A stretch of DNA of 64,000 nucleotides, from the IMG/VR virus record IMGVR_UViG_3300043185_000099, positions 1 to 64,000 of that record, one strand, 5' to 3'. This DNA is from a virus. Below are positions 2,110 through 22,980 of the stretch, piece by piece. The position numbers were made by a program, and so were the translations under genes. Below the pieces are notes generated by a model, which had not been told where the DNA came from, ran no database searches, and saw only the letters and a program-made list of their open reading frames with translations. Position 1 is the first letter of the stretch. Each line of letters starts with the position of its first letter.

Positions 2110-3240
2110 TTACGCAACTTTCTGTTGTGCGGTGCAGGAACGACAGGCCCACGATTTGCCAGCCAGAAGTTTCTGTGCGGCAACAGGAGCCACAAGCCCG
2201 CAATCACAACGCGTCATCCATTGGGAGGAGGCCGAGCGAAAGAGATGATACAAGACGACACGAGACCCGAACCGTTGGCCGCCGAGATCGTGTAGTTTGG
2301 GGGGTGTTGCCTGTGCGAGCCGAGCCCTCTTTTTCGGGTATCGTGGTTTCACGAACTTCTTGAAGAGATCACGCGAGCCGGCCAAGATTCTGAGGCACTC
2401 TTGTTGCTTGGATCGGTCACGTGGAGGACGGTCATTTGTCGAATAGGAGACCCCTAGACGGTCGAGAACGGCACGGAGGAAATCGAAGCCACCGTGCGCC
2501 TTCTGTGAAAAGGAGATCCCCCGTCCATCACGAGACACGCTCCCATCGGAATCCAGAAGCCCGGCGACCCACTCTTCCCAATGAGCAGGATTTTCAGGAA
2601 ACACCCACTTCTCTCGGTCGAGCCCAGACACCTTGAAGCGCGCGAAATCTTCCGCAAGACGGACTGAATAGACATGAACTCCTGTCTTGGTGGTTCCCCA
2701 AGGAATCTTGAGACGGTCCAGCGCCTTAGAGATCTTGGCTTGATTTTCTGGAGGAACGCAAGCAAACGTGATAACGCCTCCTCCATCTTCGGCGAAATAT
2801 GTCGACCCATCGCCATGGAACACGCCAAGCAACCAGCACCAATCGCGGTCTTGAAGATTGAGCGAATGCCAGTACTTGGTCGAACCGCACGACTTGCACG
2901 ACTTTGAGTGACCGCTCCGTAGGTCTGGTCCCCCGACAGTTCCTTCGCGACCGCAATCACACACGACGTTCCAACGAGCTGTGGCGTTCTTGTTGGCCCT
3001 GCTAAGGACGGTCCACTTACCGAAGCGTCGACCGGTGAGGTCAATTAATTTCGTGAAGGTTGCACGGCCGCACTTGCGACATGCCTTCCCACCACCGTTT
3101 CGGAGGCGTTGAGACGGGACTACATCTTCCTTGCCGCAGTCGCAGCGGACGAGCCAGTGCACAGGACCAGAGATCGACACTTTCCGTAGAACGGTCCGCG
3201 ATCCGAACTTCTGTCCAGTTAGATCGAGGAACTTGCTCAT
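2110..3240 (-). CDS. homing endonuclease (LAGLIDADG-like, with repeated DLTG..FG..W..CDCG modules)
   Basis: Motifs WLLGVFHGDGS and WVAGLLDSDGS. Three DLxGxxFG...CDCG modules typical of phage homing endonucleases. Confidence 0.75.
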   Translation of the reverse strand: MSKFLDLTGQKFGSRTVLRKVSISGPVHWLVRCDCGKEDVVPSQRLRNGGGKACRKCGRATFTKLIDLTGRRFGKWTVLSRANKNATARWNVVCDCGREGTVGGPDLRSGHSKSCKSCGSTKYWHSLNLQDRDWCWLLGVFHGDGSTYFAEDGGGVITFACVPPENQAKISKALDRLKIPWGTTKTGVHVYSVRLAEDFARFKVSGLDREKWVFPENPAHWEEWVAGLLDSDGSVSRDGRGISFSQKAHGGFDFLRAVLDRLGVSYSTNDRPPRDRSKQQECLRILAGSRDLFKKFVKPRYPKKRARLAQATPPKLHDLGGQRFGSRVVLYHLFRSASSQWMTRCDCGLVAPVAAQKLLAGKSWACRSCTAQQKVA

Positions 3241-3509
3241 GCCTCTGGTTTCTCCGAATGACCCGACATGATGGCTGCTACGCGCGTGTAGCGATCGACG
3301 AGAGCTTGACCGCCGATGTAGAAACTGGCCAGCGTGCCCGCGGTGACGGCCAACACCATGAAGGCGACGTTCTCTCCGAGCGCACCGATCTCCTGCTCAA
3401 AGAGCATGATCCCCATCAACAGGAAGAAGCCGATCTCGCAAACGAGGAAGGCGATGAATTTCTTGGACGCGAGAGCACCCTTTTCTCCGTTGTTCGTATT
3501 CTTCGCCAT
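3237..3509 (-). CDS. holin-like two-TM membrane protein
   Basis: MAKNTNNGEKGALASKKFIAFLV...YIGGQALVD: SKKF start, two hydrophobic segments, YIGGQ..VD tail. Confidence 0.55.
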   Translation of the reverse strand: MAKNTNNGEKGALASKKFIAFLVCEIGFFLLMGIMLFEQEIGALGENVAFMVLAVTAGTLASFYIGGQALVDRYTRVAAIMSGHSEKPEA

Positions 3510-3598
3510 GGTCAGGTGCATCTCTTCGGTTGCTGTTTCGGAGCCAAATGCGGGGGGAGATTGACGATCTGGGAGACGCGGCCCACGGCCTGGCCACG

Positions 3599-4039
3599 TC
3601 AGCACTTCCTTGGCTGCATCTTCGGGGCGAGATGCGGGGGCAAGTTGATGGATTGCGCCACGCGACCCGCTGGCAGGAACCTGCCACCGAGTCGACCCGC
3701 TGTGTAGACCGGAATCCGGTTCATCCTGGCCTGGAACGTGTCTTCGCTGGTCGTGCAGTCCTTGACCAGGAACACGAGTCCAGGATTGTCCCGGAACAGG
3801 AGATCGAACCGCTCCTTTTCGCAAGGCCAGAGTGCCGGGTAGAGCTTACAGAAATCAGTGCGAGCCAGCTGGGAGTGCTCAAGGGCGTCCAGGATGAAGC
3901 AGTCCTGCAGCACGATGGGGTTGTCGGGGTCGCACTCGCAACCCTTGAGCGTGTTCGTGCCCGAGGAGAGGATCCAGTAGTTCGTCGAGCACGTGCAGGG
4001 AAACTGCCGACATTGCGCGCAGTTAGTCTCGCAGCCCAT
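3599..4039 (-). CDS. Cys-rich hypothetical protein
   Basis: 146 aa, N-terminal CETNCAQCRQFPCTC. Confidence 0.65.
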   Translation of the reverse strand: MGCETNCAQCRQFPCTCSTNYWILSSGTNTLKGCECDPDNPIVLQDCFILDALEHSQLARTDFCKLYPALWPCEKERFDLLFRDNPGLVFLVKDCTTSEDTFQARMNRIPVYTAGRLGGRFLPAGRVAQSINLPPHLAPKMQPRKC

Positions 4040-19931: not shown

Positions 19932-20783
19932 ATGCGCATCACCGTTCCCGTCCTACTCCTTCTCGCATCTTGCGGCCGTCCCGCCCAGGAGAAAAGGTCA
20001 GAGCCAGAGCCCTCGCCGTCCCCACAGCACCAGGTGACAATCGCGAACCTTTGCCCGTTCGATGTCTGGGTGGCCTCGCAACCCAACGCCGGGCATCCGG
20101 TCCTGCCAGACGGGATCGTGAAACTCACGGCCAAGACCGGTACCCACGGCTACGCCATGCCCAACGCTGGGTGGGCTGGTCGATTTTGGCCGAAGACGGG
20201 ATGTGACGCGAGTGGTGAGGCGTGCGCGACGGGACAAGCCATTCCCCCGTGTCCCGCGGCGGGTTGCCAGCCCCCGGCCGACACCAAGATTGAGTTCTTC
20301 TTCGGCCCCGCAGGCGGCGCAGCCAGGCCCTACTACGACGTGAGTCTCGTGGACGGGTTCTCTCTGGGCGCCAAGATCGTGCCCTCAACCTCAGGCGGAA
20401 GATGTACGCCGACTTCGTGCGCGCTCGTGCTGAATGAGTGCCCCACTGCCGAGAAGGACAACGTCGGTGATCTGCAGATCAAGCAGGGGAACGACGTGGC
20501 CCAATGCTTCGCGCCCTGCAAGAAGTGGACGTGGCCCACACCTCTCGGTGATGGGAAGACCGAGGCCGACCCCACTGGCCAAGCGCTCTGCTGTCCGAGT
20601 CCCGTGACGCCCGAGACGTGCAACGCCGGGATCGTGAAAGACACAGAGTATGTGAAACTCGTGCACCAGGGCTGCCCCTCGGCCTACGCGTTTTCCTACG
20701 ACGACAAGGGAGGATCGCACGACTGCGATCCCGGCACGACCTTCACTGTCACCCTCTGCCCGGGTGTCCCCGCTCAGCCCTGA
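19932..20783 (+). CDS. thaumatin-family (PR-5-like) lipoprotein
   Basis: Lipobox LLLLASC; motifs IANLCPFDVW, WAGRFWPKTGC, TKIEF, YYDVSLVDGF, CPSAYAFSYDD and FTVTLCP. Confidence 0.88.
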   Translation: MRITVPVLLLLASCGRPAQEKRSEPEPSPSPQHQVTIANLCPFDVWVASQPNAGHPVLPDGIVKLTAKTGTHGYAMPNAGWAGRFWPKTGCDASGEACATGQAIPPCPAAGCQPPADTKIEFFFGPAGGAARPYYDVSLVDGFSLGAKIVPSTSGGRCTPTSCALVLNECPTAEKDNVGDLQIKQGNDVAQCFAPCKKWTWPTPLGDGKTEADPTGQALCCPSPVTPETCNAGIVKDTEYVKLVHQGCPSAYAFSYDDKGGSHDCDPGTTFTVTLCPGVPAQP

Positions 20784-21782: not shown

Positions 21783-21868
21783 GGGCCGGTCGCACAGTCT
21801 GGTTGGTGTAGCGGACTCTTAATCCGCCGGACGCAAGTCCCTCGTGGGTTCAAATCCCTCCCGGCTCA
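21783..21868 (+). tRNA. tRNA with Lys anticodon CTT and a long variable arm
   Basis: Acceptor GGGCCGG/CCGGCTC, anticodon arm GCGGA CT CTT AA TCCGC, V-arm GGAC GCAA GTCC, T-arm GTGGG TTCAAAT CCCTC. Confidence 0.8.
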
Positions 21869-21895
21869 CCGCCCTCCACAGGTTCACGGAATACC

Positions 21896-22192: not shown

Positions 22193-22274
22193 GGGCGGGT
22201 TAAGCGTAGCTGGCCGAACGCACCGGACTTTTAACCCGGCGAGGAGAAATCCCCATCGAATCCCACCCCGCTCT
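22193..22274 (+). pseudogene. tRNA-Lys(TTT) with a long variable arm, 5' T-stem strand missing
   Basis: Acceptor GGGCGGG/CCCGCTC, anticodon arm CCGGA CT TTT AA CCCGG, V-arm GGA GAAA TCC, then ATCGAATCCCAC lacking the GTGGGTT strand. Confidence 0.6.
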
Positions 22275-22295
22275 CCGCAACGAAGGAACACAGCC

Positions 22296-22980
22296 ATGGA
22301 CACCCTCATCATCGAGATACGTGCCGCCGAGGGCGGTCAAGACGCCAAGCTGCTCGTGATCGAGCAGTTCAAGGTCTACGAGCGCTTCATGCAGCTGGAG
22401 CGCCTTTGACCACGAGCTGATCGACGTACGGCCTGGGATTCTCCTGTTCCGCGTGACCGGCCGAGGTGCGCGAGAAGCCTTCCGCCACGAACCGGGCGGT
22501 CATAGGTGGCAGAGAGTGCCCCCCACCGAGAAGCGCGGTCGAGTGCACACGAGCACCGTGACGGTCGCCGTGCTCGACGTGCCGTCCGAGCACGAGGTCG
22601 TGATCGATCCCCGCGACATCGAGGAGTCCTTCACCCGAGGCAGCGGCAAGGGTGGCCAGCACAGGAACAAGACGGACACCTGCGTGGTGCTCAGGCACCT
22701 GCCCACCGACATCTCGATCCGCGTCGACGGGGGTCGAAGCCAGCACGTCAACCGTCAGACGGCCATGCAGATGCTGAGAACCAGGATCAAGGCGGCGGCA
22801 GACGAACGCGCCACCGGAACCAGGAACGCGAGCCGTCGGGCACAGCTGGGAAGCGGCATGCGCGGTGACAAGGTCCGGACGGTGGCCCTCCAGCGCGACA
22901 CCGTGACGGACCACGAGACGGGGCGGTCGATGGCCTCGAGGCCATACCTGCGAGGGCACCTCCGTCACCTGTGGGCATGA
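22296..22980 (+). CDS. class I peptide chain release factor (RF1-type PxT, lacks domain 1), expressed by a +1 frameshift at 22404-22410
   Basis: Frame 0 encodes IEIRAAEGG; the +1 frame encodes GGHRWQRVPPTEKRGRVHTS, GSGKGGQHRNKT and RSQHVN. Junction is GGAG CGC CTT TGA C. Confidence 0.9.
22397..22410 (+). promoter_or_regulatory. prfB-type programmed +1 frameshift cassette
   Basis: Internal SD-like GGAG, 3-nt spacer, CTT TGA C. Confidence 0.85.

Follow-up and report, generated by a model that had tools for sequence, protein, structure and literature searches.

A class-I release-factor gene in the viral DNA analyzed here is divided between two reading frames at a shift site of the kind found in prfB, the gene for RF2, and a programmed +1 frameshift of the prfB type probably joins the two parts into a compact factor of the RF1 type, in a yield that would go up when termination at the in-frame stop, the gate codon, is slow. 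The window, i.e. the whole stretch of DNA that was analyzed, is the initial 64 kb of an IMG/VR virus record, which is 152 kb in length, has ~62% GC and carries a family A DNA polymerase, an NAD-dependent ligase, DNA methylases and five tRNA genes. The record is ~29% complete (CheckV), so that it may lack further parts of the system. The features of the locus are collected in Table 1. The layout described previously, with 37 codons in frame 0, the string GGAG-CGC-CTT-TGA-C, 190 codons in the +1 frame and PPT and GGQ motifs in a product of 227 aa, proved exact to the base. The in-frame stop is codon 38, early in the gene, and the remainder of the protein is encoded in the +1 frame; reading from CTT directly into GAC places the junction at residues 37/38 of the product.

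Table 1. Features of the release-factor locus and the tRNA genes upstream of it (window coordinates).
Feature	Position	Strand	Remarks
tRNA-Lys (CUU), 88 nt	21783..21870	+	ARAGORN; Rfam tRNA 47.3 bits; 5' of the release-factor gene
tRNA-like element, anticodon UUU	22195..22255 (to ~22290)	+	Rfam tRNA 22.9 bits, gathering score 29
Likely ribosome-binding site GAAGGA	22282..22287	+	8 nt 5' of the ATG; inferred from sequence
ORF1, frame 0, 37 codons from ATG 22296	22296..22406	+	start of release-factor domain 2, IEIRAAEGGQDA motif
Internal Shine-Dalgarno-like GGAG	22397..22400	+	3 nt 5' of CTT; CGC spacer 22401-22403
Shift site CTT TGA C	22404..22410	+	CTT 22404-22406, TGA 22407-22409, C 22410
ORF2, frame +1, 190 codons and TGA stop 22978-22980	22408..22980	+	rest of domain 2/4 and domain 3
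PPT tripeptide (RF1-type PxT loop) inside HRWQRVPPTEKRGRVHTST	22519..22527	+	residues 75-77
GGQ peptidyl-tRNA hydrolysis motif (GGQHRNK)	22651..22659	+	residues 119-121

The joined product was compared with profiles and sequences of known release factors. In Pfam, the PCRF match (residues 4-90) extends over the junction and is followed by RF-1 at residues 98-206. In a phmmer alignment, residues 2-209 correspond to residues 86-299 of RF1 from T. maritima with no gap at the junction, which falls at RF1 residue ~121-122 in domain 2 and puts Leu37 opposite the glycine and Asp38 opposite the tryptophan of the conserved G-W motif. The shift site SD-N3-CUU-UGA-C is located inside domain 2 and away from the position it has in prfB, as had been claimed. 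With the NCBIfam models the protein scored 204 bits for prfA, 124 for prfB, 71 for prfH and 44 for ArfB, each below the respective cut-off because domain 1 is absent; the two prfA equivalogs, with cut-offs of 400 and 423 bits, reached 204 and 196, matching only model positions 106-320 of 347, and the protein lacks the about 105 residues of domain 1 that a full-length, four-domain RF1 possesses. The determinants of RF1 are retained, namely the helix tip GG-x-D-A, the glutamine in HRWQ, the threonine of PxT, the HTST motif and GGQ, and no SPF-like feature is present in the 227-aa factor. Both the assignment to the RF1 type, from the ranking of the models and the decoding residues, and the lack of domain 1 stand as the sequence-only reading had them.

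With RF1 decoding residues and GGQ in place, the product would most likely release peptides at UAA and UAG. Domain 1 is the part of the protein that interacts with RF3. Earlier work on truncated release factors showed that proteins without domain 1 still release peptides and give no response to RF3, and the present factor probably acts independently of RF3 as well. Three members of the family (L008, L112 and LR745208) are devoid of any PxT loop, a hint from sequence comparison that codon reading may not be essential throughout. A single-sequence AlphaFold2 prediction of the joined protein yielded a poor model (pLDDT 46.5) and was left unused.

Among the known factors, the best sequence match is RF1 itself, with which the protein shares the PxT-type loop, the glutamine and threonine decoding residues, GGQ and domains 2-4. 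It differs from RF1 in the missing domain 1, in a score that reaches half the NCBIfam cut-off and in the coexistence of the family with a full prfA in Myxococcota, and no recoding is known for prfA (PMC12421855, PMC5009743). The absence of domain 1 with retention of domains 2-4 is a likeness to PrfH, and an identity with that protein was rejected, as TIGR03072 gave 70.7 bits against a cut-off of 166.65 and no RtcB partner was present. PrfH, also termed RFH, is a domain-1-less release factor coupled to RtcB, and it is not known to be recoded. A search for RtcB (PF01139) found no match in the 152-kb record (about 29% complete), nor beside the copies in Nannocystis or Archangium. ArfB consists of a GGQ domain and a C-terminal tail and has no codon-recognition domain; an assignment to ArfB was dismissed as well, since PCRF (domain 2/4) is present at residues 4-90 and the ArfB match is confined to residues 98-134.

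Scans of viral, genome and metagenome collections returned about 140 loci, and a motif-anchored script identified 77 distinct recoded contexts among them. A +1 shift at CTT-TGA is found in 32 distinct contexts and at CTT-TAG in 15, and there is none at TAA; an in-frame TGA accounts for 29, with no in-frame TAG or TAA. A -1-type context in Nannocystis pusilla (L095) was excluded from these counts. The string CTTT is invariant in all 47 distinct +1 contexts, and the base 3' of the stop is a C in 38 of them. We further looked for a Shine-Dalgarno-like core (GGAG, GAGG, AGGA or GGGG) at most 12 nt from the CTT and found one at 41 of the 47 sites, compared with 14% of windows of equal size from other parts of these genes (binomial p about 8e-29); a spacing of 3 nt is the most frequent. 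The same search was negative for all 29 contexts of the in-frame-TGA clade. As the motif persists under peptides as different as LERL, RRSL, KECL and REHL, selection acts on the nucleotides. The conservation of the shift site and its Shine-Dalgarno element had been named beforehand as a check; recurrence of CTT-T[GA/AG] in 47 distinct contexts from independent assemblies greatly exceeds what chance would give, and a metagenome copy of 93% identity (L130) has an identical shift site.

The pattern of substitution follows the two frames. Per-site diversity, computed over 48 distinct sequences, has its maximum at third positions of frame 0 before the stop (0.49 versus 0.28 and 0.27) and at third positions of the +1 frame after it (0.61 versus 0.41 and 0.32). 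The changeover in codon periodicity, frame 0 before and +1 after, coincides precisely with the site. Taken from these alignments, the +1 sites are under selection.

Homologs with an uninterrupted frame had been named as evidence that would speak against a frameshift. They do exist, about ten in number, and only as a minority: two lie inside the +1 clade (L141 and L143), and others form a clade from Acidimicrobiia. The two within the +1 clade read exactly like the predicted shifted product, so that they support the joined reading instead of refuting it. A database protein of 228 aa (P0021) is apparently uninterrupted as well. Most other database entries consist of ORF2 alone (174-190 aa) or of ORF2 with an upstream extension read in an incorrect frame (211-218 aa), examples being P0006, P0010, P0013, P0020 and P0024, and the family is systematically mis-annotated in public gene calls.

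Hosts of the family range from phages of 46 kb to over 600 kb to the chromosomes of cultured Myxococcota. The +1 form occurs in huge-phage contigs, including records of 213, 395 and 619 kb, and in the published 485-kb huge phage LR745208, where the site reads GGAGGGGT-CTT-TGA-C. On chromosomes it is found in Nannocystis exedens DSM 71, N. punicea FL3, Archangium gephyra SDU49, A. lansingense and Pyxidicoccus fallax. The Myxococcota that carry the gene also have full-length canonical RF1 and RF2, and prfB of Nannocystis contains GGAGG-CAT-CTT-TGA-C; it uses the same cassette, and such ribosomes therefore do perform the shift. In a maximum-likelihood tree the +1 genes form a clade of 50 rows (SH-aLRT 98) in which phage and myxobacterial sequences are mixed, the genes with in-frame TGA form a second one of 29 rows (SH-aLRT 99), and the third, uninterrupted clade stems mostly from Acidimicrobiia. 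From the position of its gene in this tree, the present phage may have a Nannocystaceae-like host. A prophage origin of the myxobacterial copies was rejected, as their neighbors are ordinary chromosomal genes (FemAB-like, Clp ATPase, glycosyltransferase) that are not conserved between genera.

In the sister clade the in-frame TGA occupies the column of the conserved RF1 tryptophan (G-TGA-K), the same alignment column as the +1 site, and it is always TGA. Two of these genes lie in phages in which the code is standard and TGA is a frequent stop, one of them 46 kb with terminal repeats and 100% complete according to CheckV (G004), the other 86% complete (G006), and no tRNA genes at all were found in either. 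Recoding of the whole phage or a phage suppressor tRNA was ruled out by these two genomes, in which the in-frame TGA must consequently need readthrough at the level of the host. The UGA would plausibly be read through by tRNA-Trp. Note that the huge phages LR756504 and LR756502 have in-frame TGAs at other positions of the gene, and both may use code 4.

The cassette in the window contains every cis element of prfB, and it recurs in the hosts' own prfB, which makes a +1 slip the most likely mechanism. In prfB, a slip from CUU to UUU is stimulated by pairing of the Shine-Dalgarno element with the anti-Shine-Dalgarno sequence and competes with termination (PMC12421855, PMC5009743). By analogy, a ribosome that has read the 37 codons would pause; its P site would contain tRNA-Leu on CUU, its A site UGA-C. 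The GGAG 3 nt 5' of the CTT would pair with the anti-Shine-Dalgarno sequence of 16S rRNA and promote slippage, upon which the peptidyl-tRNA-Leu would re-pair from CUU to UUU and reading would resume at GAC, giving a class-I release factor of 227 aa that consists solely of domains 2, 3 and 4. The shift would have to compete with termination at UGA, and the yield of full-length protein would be up when RF2 of the host is slow and down when it is fast. That RF2 has this influence, and that the product is active, is inferred from the analogy. As a factor of the RF1 type cannot terminate at UGA, it could back up RF2 only indirectly, by taking over UAA. An alternative genetic code in this phage was rejected, as 95% of the record is covered by standard-code ORFs and 67 out of 103 ORFs (~65%) terminate in TGA, and no suppressor tRNA for the gate was found in the 152-kb record, itself about 29% complete.

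The likeness to prfB comprises the slippery CUU-U, an SD-like stimulator at 3 nt, a weak UGA-C and an early site in a class-I release-factor gene. However, the prfB site lies near codon 25, in domain 1 of an RF2 with an SPF loop, features that the window gene fails to show, being of the RF1 type (PxT, not SPF) with its site in domain 2 of a protein without domain 1. Moreover, a third of the orthologs in the family use UAG, and the sister clade has an in-frame UGA with no shift. Among 8,164 prfB motifs no TAG was found, and no programmed shift in prfA (Prince et al. 2025, PMC12421855).

The sequence-only reading had considered the gate a sensor of UGA termination. This would be apt for the window copy with its TGA, but it needs modification for the family, given the +1 orthologs with CTT-TAG-C. 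At least four changes between TGA and TAG are forced by well-supported branches of the tree, and no covariation of the PxT loop with the gate codon was detected, as PPT, PPN or PKT occur under both TGA and TAG. RF2 reads UGA, and UAA is read by both factors. Viewed across the family, the gate looks like the stop codon of only one factor in a weak context, never TAA, and not like a codon tied specifically to RF2. Such a property would fit a sensor of a scarce factor, self-regulation if both codons are read, or a purely kinetic requirement. For the UGA-gated window copy we would rank a cross-sensor first, in which an RF1-type factor responds to RF2, and self-regulation second. The close orthologs with UAG and no change in the loop indicate that sensing of RF2 in particular may not be the selected property.

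If the factor read its own gate codon, through omnipotent or altered specificity or, in the UAG-gated orthologs, plainly as an RF1-type protein, its abundance would set the rate of shifting as in prfB. The repeated swaps between TGA and TAG within one clade with an unchanged recognition loop would be easiest to understand if the product treats both codons alike, the loop is PPT or PPN and not the usual PAT or PVT, and for the 15 UAG-gated genes reading of the RF1 type would already close the loop. Nevertheless, true autoregulation of this kind appears rather unlikely, as the residues that specify UAA and UAG (the glutamine in HRWQ, the threonine of PxT and HTST) are kept with nothing resembling SPF, and the RF1 models outscore those of RF2 by 80 bits. 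A constitutive shift of fixed efficiency, in which the stop is only a slow codon and the cassette sets a low, constant output with no sensing, would account for the fact that either single-factor stop works, and for the avoidance of TAA, the most efficiently terminated codon, together with the preference for a weak C context. We consider this improbable: a constant level could be had far more cheaply through a promoter or a ribosome-binding site, the gate persists down to about 40% identity and in three forms, and its counterpart in prfB is known to respond to the release factor (PMC12421855).

Two separate products, a 37-aa peptide from ORF1 and an ORF2 protein started at the GTG at 22453 (175 aa) or by reinitiation, would agree with the gene callers, which mark only ORF2 in most entries. 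Yet ORF1 encodes the conserved helix-tip motif of release-factor domain 2 under constraint at the codon level, there is no conserved start codon at the junction where CTTT is invariant, and both parts are fused in the uninterrupted homologs, all of which renders this reading very improbable. A pseudogene or an indel from sequencing or assembly is hardly credible and was rejected on conservation: an extra T in a T-run is a common type of error, and a long-read assembly of N. pusilla does show homopolymer-like indels here, but independent assemblies, complete genomes of cultured bacteria among them, supply the 47 distinct contexts, and conservation extends to both ORFs and, at the nucleotide level, to the Shine-Dalgarno element. 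In the N. pusilla strain in question, Na p29 (L095), two 1-nt homopolymer deletions (AA to A and TTT to TT) are seen relative to a sister species, and these are probably assembly errors and not a loss of the gate.

The prfB-type shift in the window gene may be one version of a more general arrangement. Tentatively, and as a possibility that falls somewhat short of probable, we propose that the compact, domain-1-less family of the RF1 type is produced solely under faltering termination at a single-factor stop, by interchangeable gates: a +1 shift at UGA, a +1 shift at UAG, or an in-frame UGA at the tryptophan position. Autoregulation of release factors by frameshifting has so far been held to be peculiar to RF2. 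If the proposal is true, the family would provide the first natural recoding of an RF1-type gene, the first prfB cassette with UAG and the long-hypothesised readthrough-gated release-factor gene, so that three missing cases (a prfA-type shift, a UAG motif and a readthrough-gated gene) would come together in one set of homologs. UGA-gated members would amount to cross-talk between RF2 and RF1, and a phage could sense or exploit the termination capacity of its host. Nannocystis exedens DSM 71 and Archangium gephyra are cultivable, and in these hosts both the sensing by the gate and the role of a factor without domain 1 are directly testable. For phage biology, a regulated termination factor would be added to the translation modules of large phages, and for annotation it is of relevance that most entries represent a truncated ORF2 or a wrong extension.

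A readthrough-gated bacterial release-factor gene is unknown in the literature, where only the eRF1 case of giant viruses is cited (Atkins et al. 2016, PMC5009743). In Mimivirus and Megavirus, the class-I release-factor gene requires frameshifting and readthrough at internal stops, a logic akin to bacterial autoregulation (PMC3521657). Like the present family, this termination factor is encoded by a virus and depends on recoding for its own translation, but it is a homolog of eRF1/aRF1 in viruses of eukaryotes, whereas the genes described here are of the bacterial RF1 type in phages and bacteria and use either a shift or readthrough, never both. Huge and recoded phages carry RF1 or RF2 among their tRNA and translation genes, with no mention of recoding within them (Al-Shayeb 2020, PMC7162821; Borges 2021 preprint, 10.1101/2021.08.26.457843). 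Burroughs and Aravind, in their survey of release factors, do not mention such a family either. The full-text literature, which was covered incompletely, yielded no account of recoding of this kind, so that an earlier description is possible.

Phage copies of the gene sit among tRNA genes. The location of the window gene behind tRNA-Lys, pointed out at the outset, is correct and is kept in the closest phage relatives (L002-L004 and L082); the bacterial copies do not show it. The element with a UUU anticodon stays below the Rfam threshold and ends immediately 5' of the start codon of the release-factor gene. At the matching place in three of the relatives (L002, L003 and L082), ARAGORN identified a tRNA-Lys(UUU) of an unusual length of 91-93 nt. 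The tRNA-Lys(CUU) of the window has an insert of ~14 nt in its variable region.

Other tRNA genes and neighbors in these genomes deserve a brief description. Outside the window, on the minus strand of the same record (G000:C1, 125820-125895), there is a tRNA with an 8-nt anticodon loop, CUCUACAC, which ARAGORN labels tRNA-?(Pyl|Val)(ctac). It could be a decoder of the quadruplet or amber type, and the phage has an RF1-type factor as well. In a member of the in-frame-TGA type (L028), a tRNA-Trp(CCA) at 2906-2980 that has an A instead of U8 at position 8 ends 20 nt 5' of the release-factor gene with its TGA at the tryptophan position. In a phage of 28% GC (L018), a tmRNA gene and three tRNA-Met genes flank the release-factor copy (287-653 and 2529-3769), which lacks an SD-like sequence and has its CTT-TAG-C gate displaced downstream by 16 codons. 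The window also encodes, at 19932-20783, a protein of the thaumatin family (Pfam PF00314, 6e-32) whose signal sequence is lipoprotein-like.
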